From the NCBI GenBank assembly GCA_965223705.1, contig OZ245015.1, forward strand, positions 448,001-512,000: a stretch of 64,000 nt of DNA. Direction: 5' to 3'. Both the position numbers and the translations under genes were made by a program. Source of the DNA: Myxococcota bacterium (GTDB taxonomy: Bacteria; Myxococcota_A; UBA9160; UBA6930). Under the pieces are notes generated by a model. The model had not been told where the DNA came from, ran no database searches, and saw nothing but the letters and a program-made list of their open reading frames with translations. Below, one piece after another: positions 49,054 to 59,764 of the stretch; position 1 is the stretch's first letter; every line of letters begins with the position of its first letter.

Positions 49054-49104
49054 AATATCGGACTGAATTGGTGCTGTAAATATCGGACCGTTCCAGTCCG
49101 GTTT
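49054..49104. promoter_or_regulatory. Putative Rrf2 operator upstream of suf
   Basis: AATATCGGAC repeated 25 bp apart; the second copy forms the palindrome CGGAC-N7-GTCCG. Confidence 0.5.
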
Positions 49105-50311
49105 ACTCGCCGCCGTCGAGCTTTTCGAGATCCGTCCAGTTTCCGATCGGGTGTAAAAAGGCCCAGTTCCCGTGGGACCAATCCAAGGGGGGAGCCTGCA
49201 TCCGGCCCACGCGACAGATCCTGGAGGGAGCCAACCGTGCCAGGGTGTCCGCCGCTCGGGTCGCGTCGGCTCCGAACCCCGCGAGTCCCAGGGCCGCGAG
49301 CGAGCCGCGCATTGGACCGAGGCCTTGTAGCAACGCCGCGAGGTCGTCGAAGGGGTGGAGTCGCAAGAAGCGGTGGAGCGGGTGAGGGCGCGCTTCGTGT
49401 CGGCTCTCGCGCACCACGGCCCAGCGGTTCTCGGAGTCCGCCGCGACCCGAACCCCGGGCTCTGTCGCCGCTCGAAACGCCGCTTCCGTGACCGAATCGC
49501 CAAACGCGACCCGCACTTCCACCGGGCACGCGCCCCGCGGAAGCTCTTCTTCGACCGCGGCGAACGCGTCGGCCAGAGCGTCCATCAACGGATCGATGGC
49601 GGAGCGGTGCGCGTAGACGCCCCGCGGCGAGAGGCAACCCAGTTGATCCCACAACGCGACGTCGAAGGCGATGGCGTGCGCCGTACGTTCGATTTCTGCT
49701 TCACCACCCGCGCTACCGACTACGGCGAAGGATTCGCGATGTCCGTGACCGACGAAGCGCCGGTCGGCGCGGACGCGCGCGCCGAGGGCGCGGATCGTCT
49801 CGTCGTTCCCGTAGGCGACGACGCAGTCCGCGTCGAGAAAAGGGAGCCACGACGGGTCGTCTGGCCCCGGAAGATCGCGAACCGAGACACAAGCAGCGTG
49901 GGCGGGGCTCGTCGCTTCGAGCGCTTCGCGAAACGCCGCCGCGGAAACGGGATCGTGGCGGGCGGGCTTTGCGCGAACGTCGGCGCGCGTTACCAAGGGC
50001 AACAACAGCGCCGACCACGTTGGCATCGGCAGAGCGCCGGCGAGAACCAAGGCGATGTCCCGGAACCCGGTGAAGCGTCGCGGTCCGTTCGCGAAGTGCG
50101 GTTCGACGCTACGGAGAAAAGCCGCGCTGGAGAAGTGTTCCCAGGCGTGGGCGAGGCCGGCTCGAATGACGGCCGGGTGAAACCCCGTCGCGGGGGGAAG
50201 CCTTTCCTCGAGAAGTTTCCGAGGGAGGCCGTCCGCGTGTGACCACGTGGCGACGAACTCGGCCAACCGTCCGAGGTGTTCTTCGTCCGAAAGACCGTCG
50301 AGGGCGCTCAC
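49103..50311 (-). CDS. LuxC-like acyl-CoA/acyl-protein reductase
   Basis: VAYGNDET, GHRESF, DVALWDQLGCLSP (catalytic Cys), MQAPP..WSHG; GTGA overlap with luxE. Confidence 0.8.
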   Translation of the reverse strand: MSALDGLSDEEHLGRLAEFVATWSHADGLPRKLLEERLPPATGFHPAVIRAGLAHAWEHFSSAAFLRSVEPHFANGPRRFTGFRDIALVLAGALPMPTWSALLLPLVTRADVRAKPARHDPVSAAAFREALEATSPAHAACVSVRDLPGPDDPSWLPFLDADCVVAYGNDETIRALGARVRADRRFVGHGHRESFAVVGSAGGEAEIERTAHAIAFDVALWDQLGCLSPRGVYAHRSAIDPLMDALADAFAAVEEELPRGACPVEVRVAFGDSVTEAAFRAATEPGVRVAADSENRWAVVRESRHEARPHPLHRFLRLHPFDDLAALLQGLGPMRGSLAALGLAGFGADATRAADTLARLAPSRICRVGRMQAPPLDWSHGNWAFLHPIGNWTDLEKLDGGE

Positions 50312-51396
50312 GGCAGCGCGTCGATCAATTGCGCGTCCGCGGCGACGGAGCACCCGCGCACATCGCTACCCGAGCCGCGGCCCAGAACCTCGAAGCCCGT
50401 AGGAAGCTCCCGCCCGAGGTCGGCGGTCTGCAGCGCGAGCACGCTCCCGGTGTTCGCGAGGTCGAAGATGCGGATCATGCCGACCTCGCCGGGTGCGCAA
50501 TCGGTTCCGTTCTCGGGGCGTGTCACGCGCACCCGTACCCACGGCGGCCGCTCTTTGTGGCGCGGGACTCCCGGCCGCGCGAGCACGCTGTCGTAGAACT
50601 GGCTGCCGAGTTCAGTCATTCCGTACTGATTCACGATGCGATGTTCCGGAACGCCCAATCGGTCCGTAAGGGCTCCGTAGAGCTCGTTCCGAGGGACTTC
50701 TCGCGAGCGCCCCTTGAAGCCGCCGGTTTCCATGACCCGCGCCGCGGCACCCAGGGAAACGCGGGCGCCAGCGGCCTCGAGCGCGTCGAGCAGGTGCACG
50801 AAGGCGAACGCCGTTCCCGCGACGAGGACCGGCGCATCGCAGGCCTCGGCCGCTTCTAGCGCGTCGCGGAGGGGCGCGAGCGCCAACGCACCTTCGCGCA
50901 GGAAGAACGCACTCTCGCGGTCACCGCGTTCGCGGCGCATGACGTCGAACATGTACGAGAGCGATGAGTCCGACGCTTCGTCGAGAGACGGGGCGAGAAG
51001 AAGCATCCGGACCGGTCCATCGACATCGGGCAGCACGCCGCGTGTAAAGCTCGCGCGGAGAGACGCTTCGTAGAGCTCCGTCGTGTCGAGGTAGAGCGCG
51101 CCGCGCGTACTCCCTGTCGTTCCGCTGGTCCGGAACACTCGGACCGTCCTTTTCTCTTCGAAGCTGCAGAGGCGGGCGGATTTGAACGCACCGGTCGGGA
51201 CGCAGGGAATTTCGGTCCAGGACGAGAGAGCGTCGGGACGCACGCCGAGGCTTTCACAAAACGCCCGGTACGGATCGCAGCGCTCGAACTGGTAGCGGAA
51301 CACACGGAGGGCCAGCTCGTCGAAGCGCGCCTCGGAATCGTCCCAGGGCTCCCCCATCCAGGAGAGCACATCGCGGTCGATCGCCTCTCGGGTCAC
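50308..51396 (-). CDS. LuxE-like acyl-protein synthetase
   Basis: FRTSGTT, ETGGFKGR, YGMTEL, TADLG, FEVLGR...RGCS (C-terminal Cys). Confidence 0.85.
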   Translation of the reverse strand: MTREAIDRDVLSWMGEPWDDSEARFDELALRVFRYQFERCDPYRAFCESLGVRPDALSSWTEIPCVPTGAFKSARLCSFEEKRTVRVFRTSGTTGSTRGALYLDTTELYEASLRASFTRGVLPDVDGPVRMLLLAPSLDEASDSSLSYMFDVMRRERGDRESAFFLREGALALAPLRDALEAAEACDAPVLVAGTAFAFVHLLDALEAAGARVSLGAAARVMETGGFKGRSREVPRNELYGALTDRLGVPEHRIVNQYGMTELGSQFYDSVLARPGVPRHKERPPWVRVRVTRPENGTDCAPGEVGMIRIFDLANTGSVLALQTADLGRELPTGFEVLGRGSGSDVRGCSVAADAQLIDALP

Positions 51397-52667
51397 CCGA
51401 TGACCTCGCAGAGCGTCTCGAGCGCTGCGTGGAATACCTCTCGCTCGATGTTCAGAGCCGGCGTGATCGACAGCACGGAGCCCAGGGGGCCGGAGGGCAA
51501 GGTGATTACGCCGCGCTCGAGCGCGGCGCGGCACGTCGCGATTGAGCTTTCCGGTCGCGCGAATTCGATGCCGATCATCAAGCCGAGCCCGCGAACGCAA
51601 CGGACGCTCGCACGAGCGTCGAGCGCGTCCGTCAAGAACGCGCGGGCTTCGTCGCCGACGCGCGCGGCGCGCTCGGGAAGTTTCTCTTCCTCGATCACGG
51701 CCATGTTGGCCAGCGCGGCCGCGCAGCTCGGCGGATGTCCGAGGAAGGTCTGGGTATGCAACGCCTCGCCCGTCGACACCGGCCAAGCGTCCATCACGTG
51801 CTCGAGACCGAGACACGCGGAAATCGGCATCCCGCCGCTCAGCCCTTTGCCGACGCACATCAAGTCGGGGACTACGTCTTCGTGCTCGCAAGCGAACCAG
51901 GTCCCGGTCCGACCGAAGCCCGTGTACACCTCGTCCGCGATGAGGAGGTAGCCCTGATCATCGCAAAGCGATCGCAACTCGCGGAGGAAGCCCCGCGGAG
52001 GGACGACCTCGCCGCCGCGACCGAGGACGGGCTCGACGAGAACGGCGCCCACCGGGGTCGGGCAGGTTTCCGCTGCGCGAAGGACGTCCGCTGCGTCGCC
52101 GTAGCGCGCAAAGCGCGTCGTTTCGGGAAGCCGCCCGACGAACGGCGCTCGGAAGCGCTCGCCGTGGGTGACCGCCAACGTGCCGAGGGAGACGCCGTGG
52201 TAGGAGCCTTCGAAAGCGACGACACCGTCGCGGCCTGTGGCGAGCGACGCGGTCTTGAGTGCGGTTTCAACGGCATCGGCGCCGCTCGACACCAGGGTGA
52301 CCCGGGCCTTGGCGCCGCCGGGGTAGCGACCCGAGAGCGCTTCGAGCAGCTCGACCTTGACCGCCGACGGGTAGACGTCGCCCATCCCGTGCAGCAACGC
52401 GCCGGCTTGTTCGCGGACAGCGGCGACCACGCGGGGGTGGCTGTGCCCGGTGTTCGCGACGCCGAACGCGGCGGATAGGTCGACGAACCGGTTGCCGTCG
52501 ACGTCCCAGACGTTGGCACCGGACGCGCGCTCCCAGAAAATGGGAAGCGGATCGATGCAAGTGACGTCGGAGGTCTCGGCTTGCGCGAGGCGCGAGGCGA
52601 GGGCGCGGGAACGCGGCCCCGGGATTTCGCTGCGAGCTTCCGGCGGGTATGTCTGCGGGGCCGCCAT
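51393..52667 (-). CDS. Class III PLP aminotransferase
   Basis: DVDGNRFVD, FEGSYHG, EPVLG.GG, ADEVYTGFGRTG, GKGLSGG, TFLGHP. Confidence 0.9.
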   Translation of the reverse strand: MAAPQTYPPEARSEIPGPRSRALASRLAQAETSDVTCIDPLPIFWERASGANVWDVDGNRFVDLSAAFGVANTGHSHPRVVAAVREQAGALLHGMGDVYPSAVKVELLEALSGRYPGGAKARVTLVSSGADAVETALKTASLATGRDGVVAFEGSYHGVSLGTLAVTHGERFRAPFVGRLPETTRFARYGDAADVLRAAETCPTPVGAVLVEPVLGRGGEVVPPRGFLRELRSLCDDQGYLLIADEVYTGFGRTGTWFACEHEDVVPDLMCVGKGLSGGMPISACLGLEHVMDAWPVSTGEALHTQTFLGHPPSCAAALANMAVIEEEKLPERAARVGDEARAFLTDALDARASVRCVRGLGLMIGIEFARPESSIATCRAALERGVITLPSGPLGSVLSITPALNIEREVFHAALETLCEVIG

Positions 52668-52697
52668 TGCGCCAGTGTAGCGAGTAGACTTCCGCCG

Positions 52698-53225
52698 ATG
52701 GCCGGAAGCGCCAACTGCTATGTCGCGCTCGGTGCGAACCTCGGAGATCGACTCGAGCACCTGGAGCTCGCGTTGCGCTGCTTCTCGGGCGATCCCCGCC
52801 TCGACGTCGTGGCGGTGTCGCACGTGTATGAGACCGCCCCGGTGGGCGGACCCGCGGACCAACCCGCTTACTTGAACGCGGCGGCGGCTCTGCGCGCCGA
52901 CGTCTCTCCCGAGGATCTACTTGCGAAGCTCCTCCGCATCGAATCGCGCGCCGGTCGCCGTCGCGACGGTGTCCGCGACGCGCCCCGGGAGCTCGATCTC
53001 GATCTGCTCGATTTCTCCGGGCGCAGCATCGAGTCGCCGGAGCTCGTGTTGCCCCACCCGAGGCTCCATCTGCGCGCTTTTGCCTTGTTGCCCCTGCGAG
53101 ACGTCGCACCCGATTGGGTGCATCCGGTAACCGGACGTACCGTAGATGCTCTGTTGGAAGAGGCGGTGGACCGCCGCGACGCGCGCCGCCTAGAAGGAGT
53201 CCGCCTGTGGCCATTGTCGCCGTAA
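52698..53225 (+). CDS. folK: HPPK
   Basis: VALGANLGDR, YLN, PRELDLDLL, LPHPR...RAFAL.P. Confidence 0.93.
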   Translation: MAGSANCYVALGANLGDRLEHLELALRCFSGDPRLDVVAVSHVYETAPVGGPADQPAYLNAAAALRADVSPEDLLAKLLRIESRAGRRRDGVRDAPRELDLDLLDFSGRSIESPELVLPHPRLHLRAFALLPLRDVAPDWVHPVTGRTVDALLEEAVDRRDARRLEGVRLWPLSP

Positions 53226-54607: not shown

Positions 54608-55636
54608 ATGAAGCTCGGACTCATGGTCGGGTACTCCGGCGGCTCGATGACCATCGACACAGAATCAATCCTCGAGGCCGAGCGTCTCGGGTTTGACTCC
54701 GTATGGACGGCCGAGGCTTACGGCTCTGACGCGGCTACACCGCTGGCCTACATCGCCGCGCTGACGGACCGCATCAAGCTCGGTACCGCGATCTTCCAGA
54801 TGCCGGCGCGCACGCCCGCGATGACCGCGATGACGGCGATGAGTCTCGACGCATTGTCCGGCGGGCGCTTCATCCTCGGGCTCGGCCCGAGTGGTCCCCA
54901 AGTGGTCGAAGGGTGGCACGGGGTGCCCTACGGCCGCCCGCTGACGCGCACGAAGGAATACATCCAGATCGTGCGGAAAATCTTGGCGCGCGAAGGACCC
55001 CTCGAGCACAAGGGCTTTCACTACGAGATCCCCTACATGGGAGATGGCTCGACCGGGCTCGGCAAGCCGCTAAAGAGCATTCTCCGCGGTCGGCCCGACA
55101 TGGAAATCTTCACCGCGTCCATCGGTCCGAAGGGCATCGCGTGCAGCGGCGAAGTCGCGGACGGTCTGTTTCCGGTTTGGATGGATCCGCAGAAGCCCGA
55201 ACTGTTCGACCCGTATCTCGCCGAGGGGTTCGCGAAGCGAACCGACGGCAAGAAGCGGGAGACGTTCCGCATGGCGCCGTTCGTCACCTGCGTGATGGGC
55301 GACGACCTCGAACGTTGCCGCATGCCGGTGAAGGGGATGCTCGCCCTCTACATCGGCGGCATGGGGGCGCGCGGGAAGAATTTCTACAACGACTATGCGA
55401 AGCGCATGGGCTACGAAGCCGAAGCCGTGGAGATCCAAGATCTCTACCTCGCGGGCAACAAGAACGAAGCGATGGCCAAGGTCCCCGACGCGCTGGTCGA
55501 TGAGGTCGCGCTGGTCGGCTCGGCGGATCGCATTCGCGATCAGCTCGCCAGGTGGAAGGGCACGACGGTGAACGACATGCTCATCTCGTGCAATCAGAAG
55601 CCCGCGCTGCGTGTGTTGGCCGAGTCGATTCTCTAG
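54608..55636 (+). CDS. LLM-class F420-dependent oxidoreductase (Rv3520c-like)
   Basis: [45 protein letters not shown]. Confidence 0.88.
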
Positions 55637-56646
55637 TCGACGCGCTTCCGCGCTCGAGTGAGCGCGTCGATCGCGTCGTCGATGTCAGCGCGCGTGACAC
55701 CCAGGTGCGTCACCGCGCGGAAGCGCGTCGCGGCGAAAGCGATCAAGAGGACGCCTTCCTCACGCGCCGCTTCGAGAAACCGCGATCCGGCGTCACAGTG
55801 AAACATCACGATGTTGGTTTCCGGCTCTTCGACGGCGAAACCGCGCTCGCGAAGTCCGGTGGCGAGCCGCCTCGCGTTGTCGTGATCTTCGGCCAGCCGG
55901 TCCAGGTGATGCTCGAGGGCGTAGAGTCCGCCGGAGGCGACGATCCCCGCTTGTCGCATCCCGCCGCCCATACGCTTGCGGAACCGGTGAAGCGTTTCGG
56001 CGTAGGCCGAACTCGTCGCGACGAGCGAGCCCACCGGCGCACCGAGTCCTTTCGACAGGCAGCACGAGACCGTGTCGAAGGGAGCGGCAAAATCGCGGAG
56101 GGGAACCCCCGTGGCGACGGAGGCGTTCCAGATGCGTGCGCCGTCCAGGTGAATTGCCAGGCCGCCCGCACGACCGGCGTCCGCGATTTTTCGAATCGTC
56201 TCGAGCGGGAAGATTCTCCCGCCCGCGGCGTTATGGGTGTTCTCGATGGCCACCACGGTCGCCGGAGCTCGGTGGGGATCTCGCGGGGGGAGCGCTTCGC
56301 GGAGGTCGTTTTCGTCGAAGAGGCCCGTCTCGCCCAACGTGTGGATGTGCAACCCCGCCAGTGCCGAAGCCGCGCCGGATTCGTAGCGCAGGATGTGCGC
56401 GCCGTGCCCCGCGATGACGACGTCCCCCGGACGGGTCAACGTCTGCAACGCGACTTGGTTGGCCATGGTTCCGGACGGGAAGAAGAGCGCCGTCTCTTTC
56501 CCGAGCAGGGACGCAACGCGCTCCTGCAAACGATTCACGCTCGGATCTTCGGCGAAGACGTCGTCCCCGACGGGGGCGTCCGCCATCACTTTTCGCATGG
56601 CATCGGTAGGGCGCGTCAACGTGTCGCTGCGGAGGTCGATCGGCAT
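55633..56646 (-). CDS. ltaE: Low-specificity L-threonine aldolase
   Basis: [35 protein letters not shown]. Confidence 0.93.
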
Positions 56647-56702
56647 GCGGAAAAGCATAGCCCCGGCGGCGACCGCTCCCGAGGGTACGTTAGCGTTGCG
56701 CC

Positions 56703-57473
56703 GTGACCTCCGAAGAGCGAAATCGAGAAGCGCAGCTCGCCGATGCTTGGCGCCGCGCATCGCGCGTTTCGATCCTCACGGGAGCCGGCCTTTCCACGGC
56801 GTCGGGTATTCCCGATTTCCGCTCCCCAGGTGGGCGTTGGGAACGCTACCAGCCCGTTCCGCTCCCGGAGTTTCTCGAGAGCGAGACGTCTCGCGAAACG
56901 TATTGGGGCTACAAGCGCGAGACGTGGCCGGTCATCCAGGCCGCCGAGCCGAATCCCGCCCACGACGCACTGGCCTCACTCGGCCGAGCCGGGAAAATCG
57001 CGTTGTTGGTCACCCAGAACGTCGATGGTCTGCACGAACGCAGCGGGTTTCCGACAGACCGCCTGGTGAACATTCACGGCACCGACGCTCGGGTCCGGTG
57101 TTTGTCGTGCAGCGAGGGGTTCAGTCGGGAGGCGATTCAACATCGGCTCGAGGAAGGCGAGCGGGTCCCGCGGTGCGCGTGCGGAGGGTTGCTCAAACCC
57201 GAGACGATCTCCTTTGGACAAAGTCTCGTCGAAGACGATTTGCAACGCGCGTTCGAGGGCGCGGCGAAGTGCGACTTGTTCGTCGCCGTGGGAACGTCTC
57301 TGGTGGTCGGTCCGATCAACGCGATGTTTGACATCGCGGAGCGGGCGGGAGCCGAGACCGCGATCTTGACCGCGAGCGAGACACCTTTCGATGAGCGGGC
57401 GGGACACCGGCTCCACAGTCCACTCGAAACGGTGCTGCCGGCCTTGTGTGCCGGCGTTCTCGGAACGCACTAG
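56703..57473 (+). CDS. cobB: Sir2/CobB NAD-dependent protein deacylase
   Basis: [24 protein letters not shown], CxxC/CxC Zn site, GTSL.V. Confidence 0.92.
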
Positions 57474-57517
57474 TCCCGAAATCGGCAGGTAGAAGGCGTC
57501 TCGCGGCGTTTTTTTGT

Positions 57518-57545
57518 TTGACTCCGTCGGTGGAATTCGTAACAT
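57518..57545 (+). promoter_or_regulatory. sigma70-type promoter for the histone gene
   Basis: TTGACT-N16-TAACAT with an upstream T-tract. Confidence 0.55.
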
Positions 57546-57633
57546 CCGGCGGCCCGCAACGAACGGGATCGCGTTTCGCGGCTCGGCGGGTCCATCGAAA
57601 AGTTAAAACCGTTCACGGGGAAAGAGGTAGGAC

Positions 57634-57849
57634 ATGGCAGCACGAAGAAAGAAGACGACCCGCCGCCGCTCGTCGAAGCCGGCAGAGCTGATTATTTCGA
57701 AGGCTCGCACGAAGGCTTCCGTCAAGAAGTGCAACGTTGGCGCGGAATTCTACGAGGCCCTCGACAAGGTCGTCCGCGACATGATCAAGGGCGCCGAGGC
57801 GCGCGCGATCGGCAACAAGCGCAAGACGCTGAAAGCGGTCGATCTCTAG
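57634..57849 (+). CDS. Bacterial histone-fold protein with a basic N-terminal tail
   Basis: 71 aa; alpha1 LIISKARTK, alpha2 AEFYEALDKVVRDMIKGAEARA, RKTLKAVDL (RKTxxxxD) terminus; AGAGG SD. Confidence 0.88.
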   Translation: MAARRKKTTRRRSSKPAELIISKARTKASVKKCNVGAEFYEALDKVVRDMIKGAEARAIGNKRKTLKAVDL

Positions 57850-57877: not shown

Positions 57878-57919
57878 AAGGCGGCGCGGGTCAAAGCCCG
57901 CGCCGCCTTCGTCGTTTTT
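57878..57919. terminator. Bidirectional hairpin terminator
   Basis: 13-bp stem AAGGCGGCGCGGG/CCCGCGCCGCCTT flanked by A- and T-runs, between convergent genes. Confidence 0.75.
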
Positions 57920-59081
57920 AACCGTCCTCTTGGTCTTCGAGGGGTTCCGTGAAATGCGCGGGAACGACGCTTCGGTCGAGGTTGGCTCCGACTCGGAACA
58001 GATGAACGAGGGAGACTCGCCGCGCGACCTCTTCGAGGCCGAGCCCGCGTCGCGCCGCCACGTACTCGAGGCCCGCGCTGGCAATGGTGAGCGCTTTGCG
58101 GAGTGCCGCGGGTAGCGTTTCGGCATCGCCCAGCGGAAGGCGGTCCGCCACCGCGACCCGGTTCGCAAGCGCAATCAGACGAAACAACGCCGCCTGCCTG
58201 TGTCCCTCGTCGAGTGCCTGCAAAGCGAGGAGCAAACTCGGGGTGTCCTCCCGCAGGTCCGGAAGCCGCGGGATCCACACCGGAAGGGACCAGGTTCCGA
58301 TCTCGTGTTCTTCTGGCACGAGATCCCACGTGTGCTCCGGGACGAGGGCGTAGATCTCCAGCGAGGTTTCCTCGTCGGGGAACCCGAGATCCTGCAAGCG
58401 CCCTTCTCTCCAACGCCGCGCCCACTCGCGGTTTTCCGTCGGAAGCTCCCACGACACGGCCTGCAACATGCGGAAATAGCGCCAGTAGTCCTTCTGGAAG
58501 AGGATCCGCAGGAACGTGGTCACGTCCGCAAGATCATCCTGCTCGCGCCGCGCGGTGTAGTAGAACTGACCGTCGAGACTTTGGGCCGCGTCCGGAACTT
58601 TCTCTTCGTCCTCTTTGGTTTTCATGAAGACGTCGACCCGGTCCGCTAGCCAGAGGTAGACGAGCTCGGGATCGAGTTCGTGGCTCACTCGGAGCGCGGC
58701 GTCCTCGCCGGAATTGACGAGTGCGACCATCCACTCGGAGAACTTTGTGGGATCGGGCTCCCGGATGCCCCACGTATCGAGATCCACGCACGCGACCCAC
58801 TGCTCCGGCGTCGCGATGCCGAGCAGCCAGCCGGCATCGTGGAGCCCGATCGCTTTGGCGGTAAAACAGAGCTCGGCTTCCGGCAGCAACGGGACCACGT
58901 TTTCGGGTTCATCGAGGAGACCGAGAAGTTCGGCACGCGCCGCAACCGGGGTTTCGCAGATCACGGCGACGCACTGATCCGCGTCGAGCGAATTCAGTGT
59001 CGCAGAGGCCGCCGCGCGGTCTCGCCGAGCGAGACGCAGCAGATCGCCAGACAGTTCCCGAGGCGCCGCAACGGGTTTCAT
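57918..59081 (-). CDS. DUF6178-like protein
   Basis: ATPEQ..CVDLDTW, RWREGRLQDLGFP, LANRVAVAD, LFRVG recalled from this family. Confidence 0.65.
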   Translation of the reverse strand: MKPVAAPRELSGDLLRLARRDRAAASATLNSLDADQCVAVICETPVAARAELLGLLDEPENVVPLLPEAELCFTAKAIGLHDAGWLLGIATPEQWVACVDLDTWGIREPDPTKFSEWMVALVNSGEDAALRVSHELDPELVYLWLADRVDVFMKTKEDEEKVPDAAQSLDGQFYYTARREQDDLADVTTFLRILFQKDYWRYFRMLQAVSWELPTENREWARRWREGRLQDLGFPDEETSLEIYALVPEHTWDLVPEEHEIGTWSLPVWIPRLPDLREDTPSLLLALQALDEGHRQAALFRLIALANRVAVADRLPLGDAETLPAALRKALTIASAGLEYVAARRGLGLEEVARRVSLVHLFRVGANLDRSVVPAHFTEPLEDQEDG

Positions 59082-59158
59082 AGCCGCAATCTAGCGCGCG
59101 CGGCGTCAAAGCTATGATCCCTGTCCGTGATGTGTTCCGGACGAGGAGGCGGGCTCCC

Positions 59159-59764
59159 GTGATCAGGCTCCCCGAGATTCGAGGCGCGCTCCGGGCCAAG
59201 ACGCCCGCGGAGATGGATCCCGAGGGGCGCAACCAGGCGGCCGTGGCGATGGTTTTCCGCGACGAGCCCGAAGCGACCGAAGTGCTCTTCATCGAGCGCG
59301 CGAGCCATCCGGCGGATCCGTGGTCCGGCCACATGGCCTTTCCCGGCGGGCGTGTCGATCCGGTGGACGCATCCCTCCGGGCGGCCGCCGAGCGCGAGAC
59401 GCGGGAGGAAGTCGGTGTCGAGCTCCGCGGTGCCGAATATCTGGGACGGCTCGACGACATCGAGGGCTATCGGGGCGGTCGCAAAGTGGGCCTCGTGATC
59501 AGCGCGTTCGCGTACTACCACCCGGAGCCGGAAGAGCTCATCCCGTCCTACGAAGTCGCCGAGGCACTTTGGGTGCCGGTCTCACGGCTCTGGGATCCCA
59601 CGCACCGGGTCGATCATCACCACCAGGGGGCGGGGCCGTATCCGGGAATTCAGGTCAGCGAGTCGGCGAGCCACATCGTGTGGGGCCTCACGTACCGCTT
59701 CGTGCAGAACTTCCTCGACTCACTGGGCTTGGACCGCGCCGGAGGCGCCGGGCCGCATCCCTAG
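59159..59764 (+). CDS. Nudix CoA pyrophosphatase
   Basis: DPWSGHMAFPGG, RETREEVG, VWGLT; GTG after GAGGAGG. Confidence 0.88.
   Translation: MIRLPEIRGALRAKTPAEMDPEGRNQAAVAMVFRDEPEATEVLFIERASHPADPWSGHMAFPGGRVDPVDASLRAAAERETREEVGVELRGAEYLGRLDDIEGYRGGRKVGLVISAFAYYHPEPEELIPSYEVAEALWVPVSRLWDPTHRVDHHHQGAGPYPGIQVSESASHIVWGLTYRFVQNFLDSLGLDRAGGAGPHP

Follow-up and report, generated by a model that had tools for sequence, protein, structure and literature searches.

The stretch of DNA analysed here (the window, 64,000 nucleotides) comes from a Myxococcota bacterium of the class UBA9160, and an earlier note on it had pointed to a short gene whose product looked like a histone with a basic N-terminal tail. 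The locus raises the question of whether this is a real histone, to which type it belongs, whether the tail is made, and whether it serves as a platform for modification or as an electrostatic grip.

Reading frame and start codon

Translation of the window ORF at 57634–57849 (+) gave a protein of 71 aa. Its residues 1–18 (57634–57687, +) comprise a K/R-rich tail with 5 R, 3 K and 4 S/T, which was predicted to be disordered (pLDDT 53–64 over residues 1–20). Residues 19–71 and the stop codon (57688–57849, +) make up an alpha3-type, face-to-face (FtF) fold, as assigned by profile search, model, fold searches, four-copy prediction and comparison of all 89 loci. It was found that 27 residues separate V35 and R63 and that the chain ends with D70-L71. 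The residue counts, the 27-aa segment from L1 to RKT and the DL end given in the earlier note were all borne out by the translation.

An in-frame TAG was found two codons upstream of the histone ATG, and a Shine-Dalgarno (SD)-like GAGGT lies at 57624–57628, 5 nt 5' of it. No ATG, GTG or TTG was found in the window sequence between this ATG and the start of the fold. The start is therefore fixed in the upward direction, and could be shifted downward only to a rare CTG or ATT codon.

For comparison with relatives, 110 loci were reduced to 89 distinct ones by removal of 21 duplicates; these were the best-scoring of 414 relatives plus the top 30 of the class-genome matches, a selection which favours tailed copies. 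It could be supposed that translation begins from the CTG/ATT codons at the fold edge, in which case no tail would be produced and the basic leader would be an error of annotation. There is a precedent for such an error, as a 77-residue database form of HLp was judged to have a wrong start, according to PMC12701072, and an ATG, GTG or TTG occurs just before the fold in 16/89 relatives and in several of the further fetched class members. Nevertheless, the window copy has no such codon, and an in-frame ATG was observed 9–20 codons before the fold (median 17) in 89/89 loci, with every length change keeping the frame. The upstream ATG is preceded by an SD motif in 83/89 loci, and 84/89 tails start with MAA[RK][RK]. 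Therefore, loss of the tail through a downstream start is hardly credible, and the translated 18-aa basic tail described in the earlier note was upheld, both in the window and by its conservation among relatives. In L175–L178, L185 and L189, a Met codon directly before the fold could yield a tailless isoform, with no clear SD ahead of it.

Fold assignment

The 71-aa histone was recognised by neither Pfam nor NCBIfam, and a V-ATPase E row at E 0.14 was dismissed as noise. Alignment A1 contained 116 close relatives (from a list of 120, the 4 of greater length were left out), and the top two rows of its profile against the PDB were HTkC of Thermococcus kodakarensis (9F2C, E 1.9e-6) and HLp of Leptospira perolatii (9QT0, E 0.11). 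Alignment A2 contained 95 sequences, namely 20 close relatives and 75 picked for fold coverage from 150 listed. The AlphaFold2 model made from A2 exhibited helices at residues 23–29, 37–60 and 68–70, with a pLDDT of 88–95 beyond the low-scoring first 20 residues and of 89–95 over residues 21–70.

Searching 48,161 chains with VIA-align, we found HLp at Z 7.1 (rmsd 1.2, 54 residues aligned), HBb at 6.8 (1.4, 53) and HTkC at 6.8 (1.5, 54), followed by the next row at Z 4.8; all these Z values are below 8, a range in which, by the tool's own account, small helical proteins commonly fall. The top eight rows of Foldseek were again HLp, HBb and HTkC, none of them at E 0.001 or better. The histone-fold call was therefore made from the distance in Z between these three and the row that followed, the cover of the whole domain, the motifs and the concordance with what the sequence search had found, and it was confirmed, as far as model and sequence go, that the product of 57634–57849 is a real alpha3 histone.

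The short geometry proposed in the earlier note was also recovered. The alpha3 histones are marked by an alpha3 of just 3–4 residues and an alpha2 that falls four to five residues short of the nucleosomal length. Here, alpha3 is truncated, with a helix at 68–70 and the chain end at 71, and the three best hits of the fold search all belong to this group. Alpha2 is short, as indicated by the V35–R63 spacing of 27 residues compared with 31 in the full-length histone of the same genome, which aligns with H3 without a gap. A nucleosomal (HMf-type) identity was rejected, because the protein lacks the full-length alpha2 and the ten-residue alpha3 and has no PF00808 match; a DUF1931 pseudodimer was rejected as well, the protein being a 71-aa singlet, not a doublet, without a Pfam match. 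PF09123 was not found in the genome, which is 95% complete.

Face-to-face type of the histone

The earlier note had matched the protein to Bd0055 and to face-to-face histones alike. According to PMC11390915, FtF histones are defined by a predicted ring tetramer together with the profile residues R48, N52, R54, T56 and D61; R48 and N52 are missing from bacterial dimers, for example Bd0055/HBb. The FtF residues of the histone are R57, N61, R63, T65 and D70, which were found in 89/89 distinct loci and in 88/95 A2 sequences. Among them, R63, T65 and D70 form the RxTxxxxD motif of FtF histones (89/89 loci), while R57 and N61, which correspond to profile R48 and N52, lie six and two residues before R63. 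All 89 loci share a fold length of 53 aa with an R-x3-N-x-R-x-T-x4-D-x ending. The alpha1 lysine (profile K16; HTkC K11) is K27, invariant in the 116 close relatives and K/R in 93/95 A2 sequences.

Prediction with four copies gave a score of 0.86, a mark reached by 20/30 solved pairs and 1/23 single chains; the best of 3 controls scored 0.01. This score is dominated by the dimer and may reflect memory of the solved HLp/HTkC complexes. At least 84% of the contacts agreed between the four-copy runs, and the partner pLDDT was at least 80. Cross-dimer contacts were predicted at residues 56–57, 60–61, 63 and 69–70 (error under 8 Å; listed for one chain only), and their places match R49, S52, N53, R55, T61 and F63 of HLp as described in PMC12701072. 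The oligomer prediction that the earlier note had proposed thus pointed to the residues of the FtF dimer–dimer interface, in a setting where solved look-alikes exist.

A Bd0055/HBb-type dimer, bending or coating DNA instead of wrapping it round a tetramer, would also be compatible with part of these data, since HBb superposes on the monomer model no worse than HTkC (Z 6.8, rmsd 1.4) and RKT with a lysine is, according to PMC11390915, a motif of the bacterial dimers as well. However, HBb has S and D where the histone has R57 and N61 in 89/89 loci, the chain stops one residue past D70 as the R-to-carboxyl salt bridge requires, and the sequence search returned HTkC and HLp, not HBb. We regard the dimer as very unlikely. 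Carrying R57 and N61, which HBb lacks, the histone is by its residues and predicted assembly of the FtF type and not of the Bd0055 type. Of the double match in the earlier note, the face-to-face half therefore stood and the Bd0055 half fell.

Promoter, leader and terminator

A sigma-70-type promoter, TTGACT-16 nt-TAACAT, was predicted at 57518–57545 (+) with a T run ahead of it. Within 2.5 kb no other promoter-like site was seen (1 observed vs 0.1 expected), and such a site was found within 220 nt upstream in 74/89 distinct related loci, compared with 5.9 in shuffled controls and 2.7 in random windows. The T run at 57507–57517, just 5' of the –35 box, was seen (uncounted) in many related loci and may resemble an UP element.

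The ~80-nt 5' leader (57546–57633, +) contains the GAGGT described above, and an SD of at least 4 nt is present in 83/89 loci. When a structured conserved leader was sought, none was seen: the window leader folds like its shuffles (z 0.5), and leader lengths in related loci, compared by eye, differ widely from ~40 to 190 nt.

Downstream, a 14-bp G+C-rich terminator-like hairpin was found at 57878–57909 (no strand assigned; –43 kcal/mol, z –5.2 on the + strand and –4.8 on the – strand). Lying between the histone stop and the convergent stop of a DUF6178 gene, it probably serves both genes. Stems of at least 10 bp follow the stop codon in 58/89 loci, vs 5% of control windows, while the hairpin between the sirtuin and histone genes was no better than chance (z –0.2). 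On account of the promoter-like sites (74/89) and the downstream hairpins (58/89), a stand-alone transcription unit is, judged from sequence, the rule across related loci, which is in line with the earlier description of the gene as having its own promoter, SD and strong terminator. The conserved promoter and terminator, together with the analogy of other FtF histones, suggest that the histone would be highly expressed.

Distribution in the class

The histone gene was found in 188/201 genomes of the class and in 116/118 good ones, nearly always once. Outside the class, only 12/122 genomes of the phylum had any A2 match, many of which were ZZ histones. By these counts, the tailed FtF histone is a core gene of the whole uncultured class. 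The closest named records are mostly titled Myxococcota or Deltaproteobacteria. Several records titled Spirochaetales or Spirochaetaceae (L006, L009, L010, L011, L017, L020, L023 and others) have a Myxococcota-type gene and neighbours, and their labels are probably wrong. No literature on the class UBA9160 in connection with histones was found.

Composition of the tail across relatives

Over the 89 loci, the tails consist of 34% K, 29% A, 12% R and 5% S+T, with a net charge of +2 to +9. S and T are absent from 45/89 tails, and the window copy, with 4, has the most. The motif ARK[ST] was found in 3/89 tails and ARTK in 0/89, both of which we take to be motifs used as eukaryotic-type fixed modification motifs. 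A search of the PDB with tail residues 1–22 returned no match at E 10, a short query of low power.

To these were added 15 class members from weaker rows, one of which proved to be the same locus as L063. K/R-rich tails were found in 12 of them, and short one-lysine leaders in 3. The 3 tail-poor members all belong to small genomes of 2.2–2.8 Mb, and one is a fused tandem doublet. Among matches outside the class, a basic tail was found in 1/5. The doublet (L185, G061:C50:163422-163787, 2.8-Mb genome) is an FtF histone in which two almost identical copies follow a short leader with hardly any charge, and matches of ~120 aa with two stretches in the wider relative search may be further doublets. 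The other two (L179 and L186, in G033 and G122) are small-genome members of one genus, with a short leader containing one lysine.

These data indicate, at the level of sequence, that what is kept in the tails is lysines and net charge, and that phosphorylation sites are not kept. The "eukaryote-like" character given to the tail in the earlier note therefore stood for the basic, predicted disordered N-terminal extension, as in eukaryote-type tails, but not for S/T, and the proposed role of S/T as phosphorylation sites was not sustained.

Neighbouring genes and the sirtuin

The upstream neighbour of the histone gene is a Sir2-family NAD-dependent deacylase (56703–57473, +; PF02146, E 4e-40), and the convergent neighbour is a DUF6178 protein (57918–59081, –; PF19676, E 5e-64). 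DUF6178 lies within 4.9 kb downstream in 57/64 loci with enough flank. It forms with a Nudix hydrolase a divergent pair (57918–59764) that occurs near the histone across the class (89/110 and 66/110 loci, respectively). Clustering of the neighbouring ORFs revealed no new fixed partner, the signal being swamped by shadow frames. Farther upstream, at 49103–52862 (–), there is a gene run with an aminotransferase class III-like member; the ORFs after it are presumably LuxE-like and LuxC-like acyl-protein synthetase/reductase genes.

The sirtuin next to a basic tail would suit a site-specific modification platform, in which a writer marks the lysines, the sirtuin or a classical deacetylase erases the marks and the ZZ-finger histone reads the free N-terminus, as a bacterial counterpart to the regulation of tails in eukaryotes and Asgard archaea. 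Several observations are in its favour. The sirtuin is directly upstream. Of the 20 other class genomes that bear it, 18 could be placed, and in 13 of these the sirtuin gene precedes the histone gene by no more than 3 kb in the same orientation (5 on another contig; 2 genomes unplaceable). The genome gave matches to 2 SIR2, 2 Hist_deacetyl and 1 SET, and ZZ-finger histones are matched, whole or in part, in 108/121 class genomes. The five N-terminal residues of the tail are conserved in 84/89 loci. Furthermore, Asgard sirtuins remove acetyl from Asgard histone tails, as stated in a preprint (bioRxiv 10.64898/2026.07.02.735847).

Against this, a sirtuin ortholog was found in just 21/121 class genomes. 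Where 4.9 kb of upstream DNA was available, it was present in 14/67 loci and adjacent in 4, and in 13/14 of these loci it was accompanied by its ltaE-like neighbour. SET matches are patchy (61/121 class genomes, 2/17 in the own family), and the SIR2 and Hist_deacetyl families are also found in 10/14 and 9/14 control genomes. According to Schwab et al. (PMC11390915), bacterial ZZ histones have not kept the binding pocket of their eukaryotic ZZ counterparts. Tail length, the choice of K or R and the S/T content vary freely. Inherited gene order, lost in many lineages, accounts for the proximity of sirtuin and histone without a functional tie, although such a tie may exist. Consequently, a site-specific platform appears unlikely, and SET and sirtuin were dropped as dedicated tail enzymes owing to their patchy distribution. 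The sirtuin gene and the gene of the ltaE-like PLP enzyme (55633–56760) point away from each other, and their starts overlap or abut.

A broader form of this idea would have the class run a multi-histone chromatin, with the tailed FtF histone as bulk packager, HMf-shaped and ZZ histones as variants, the ZZ histone reading the Ala-Ala-basic N-terminus and the sirtuin erasing acyl marks. We give it a slight chance; if true, it would mean that reader/eraser logic acting on a histone tail had originated separately in bacteria.

Other histones of the genome

The genome contains a second histone (G000:C1:4129105-4129317, –; L111:5106-5318), a tailless singlet of 70 aa that has alpha2 and alpha3 at their full length and aligns with H3 without a gap. 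Published surveys describe histones of nucleosomal length as archaeal only (PMC11390915). The full-length histone was found in 77/121 class genomes and in 0/42 of family f5, and larC lies upstream of it in 30/30 loci. An SOS link was dropped, because lexA is downstream in only 1/30 loci, that of this genome; a literature search on a lexA/SOS link to the second histone returned nothing relevant. In family f5, in which the full-length histone was not found, there is often an extra stand-alone HBb-like singlet (e.g. L147:1322-1555, G011), possibly a replacement.

The third histone (G000:C1:821916-822383, –; L143:2417-2884) is a protein of 155 aa with a ZZ-type zinc finger, a variable linker and an HBb-like fold, the C-terminal part of which matches HBb at E 7e-9. 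Some of the rows behind its count in the class genomes are matches to the histone part alone. In a sensitive six-frame search of the genome with two profiles, no clear fourth histone was found.

Comparison with known systems

HTkC and HLp are described as tetramers in solution wrapping ~60 bp (bioRxiv 10.64898/2025.12.06.692711; PMC12701072). For HTkC, it is reported that tetramer formation depends on R45 and that DNA is touched by K7, K9, K11, R51, K52 and T53 (bioRxiv 10.64898/2025.12.06.692711). The latter correspond to K23, R25, K27, R63, K64 and T65 of the histone. HTkC was the best sequence match, with 35% identity in the structural alignment, the same short alpha2 and alpha3, R45 equivalent to R57 and full-length histones in the same genome. 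Nevertheless, it is archaeal, has 59 aa and no basic tail, its L1 is ~4 residues longer, and its R22 and E49 are both N in the Myxococcota histone.

HLp (9QT0-9QT2), which is bacterial, was the best structural match, and its tetramer residues R49/N53/R55 and clamp D62, as given in PMC12701072, correspond to R57/N61/R63/D70. In contrast, its identity is 24%, and it is described with approximately seven unresolved N-terminal residues, not with an 18-residue K/R tail. Leptospira is reported in the same source to have no HU and one histone, whereas two HU/IHF matches and three histones were found here. Bd0055/HBb (8CMP, 8FVX) has the same alpha3 geometry but neither of the two tetramer residues; it is a DNA-bending dimer with no basic tail.

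The tailed nucleosomal histones of eukaryotes and Asgard archaea likewise have a basic, lysine-rich, predicted disordered N-terminal extension before the fold. They differ in their full-length alpha2/alpha3, in nucleosome stacking and in a poorer fit to the model (Z at most 4.8, rmsd at least 1.9 among the top rows); modifications were measured there, including, for Asgard archaea, modifications of the tails and their removal by sirtuins (2026 preprint, bioRxiv 10.64898/2026.07.02.735847), whereas the present histone is known from sequence and model. As for bacteria, Hocher et al. 2023 (PMC10627809) describe most singlet histones as being without long tails. For FtF histones of bacteria, basic tails have already been published: Schwab et al. 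(2024, PMC11390915) name Myxococcota as a main host of tailed FtF histones and call the tails "common" and mostly positively charged. An experimental test of the function of a bacterial histone tail was not found in the literature searched, which did not extend to subscription papers.

Proposed mechanism

We consider it probable that the gene encodes an abundant housekeeping FtF histone, a bulk nucleoid protein that forms a DNA-wrapping tetramer whose tail adds electrostatic grip. The gene would be transcribed alone from its sigma-70-type promoter, whose conservation suggests a high level of expression. Two chains would form a histone-fold dimer, and two dimers are predicted to join into a ring-shaped tetramer, with the last part of alpha2, L2 and the shortened alpha3 as contact surface (R57, N61, R63, D70 and the C-terminal carboxyl). 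By analogy with HLp, ~60 bp of DNA per tetramer would run round a basic rim via K23/R25/K27 and K62–K67, and the residue matches suggest that wrapping would be without sequence preference. The disordered tail, variable in length but with its K/R run kept, may grip flanking DNA or neighbouring particles electrostatically. The tail lysines may undergo acylation, as happens in other nucleoid proteins of bacteria, presumably without a site-specific histone code. The FtF histone would act beside HU/IHF and the two other histone types, rather than as the sole nucleoid protein.

Two observations do not fit this explanation well. The minor-groove R22 of HTkC is N34 in the histone. The strong conservation of the first five tail residues is more than charge alone needs, and may reflect constraints of translation start or processing.

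Significance

The histone represents the tailed FtF type of bacteria in a clear form with well-defined limits, and its tail is longer and more basic than in either FtF histone studied so far. As the protein is small and easily expressed, the role of a bacterial histone tail would be directly testable. The presence of three histone types in one genome suits the study of the division of labour among bacterial histone variants. Should the tail prove to carry marks that are read, bacteria would have evolved histone-tail regulation on their own, apart from the Asgard–eukaryote line.
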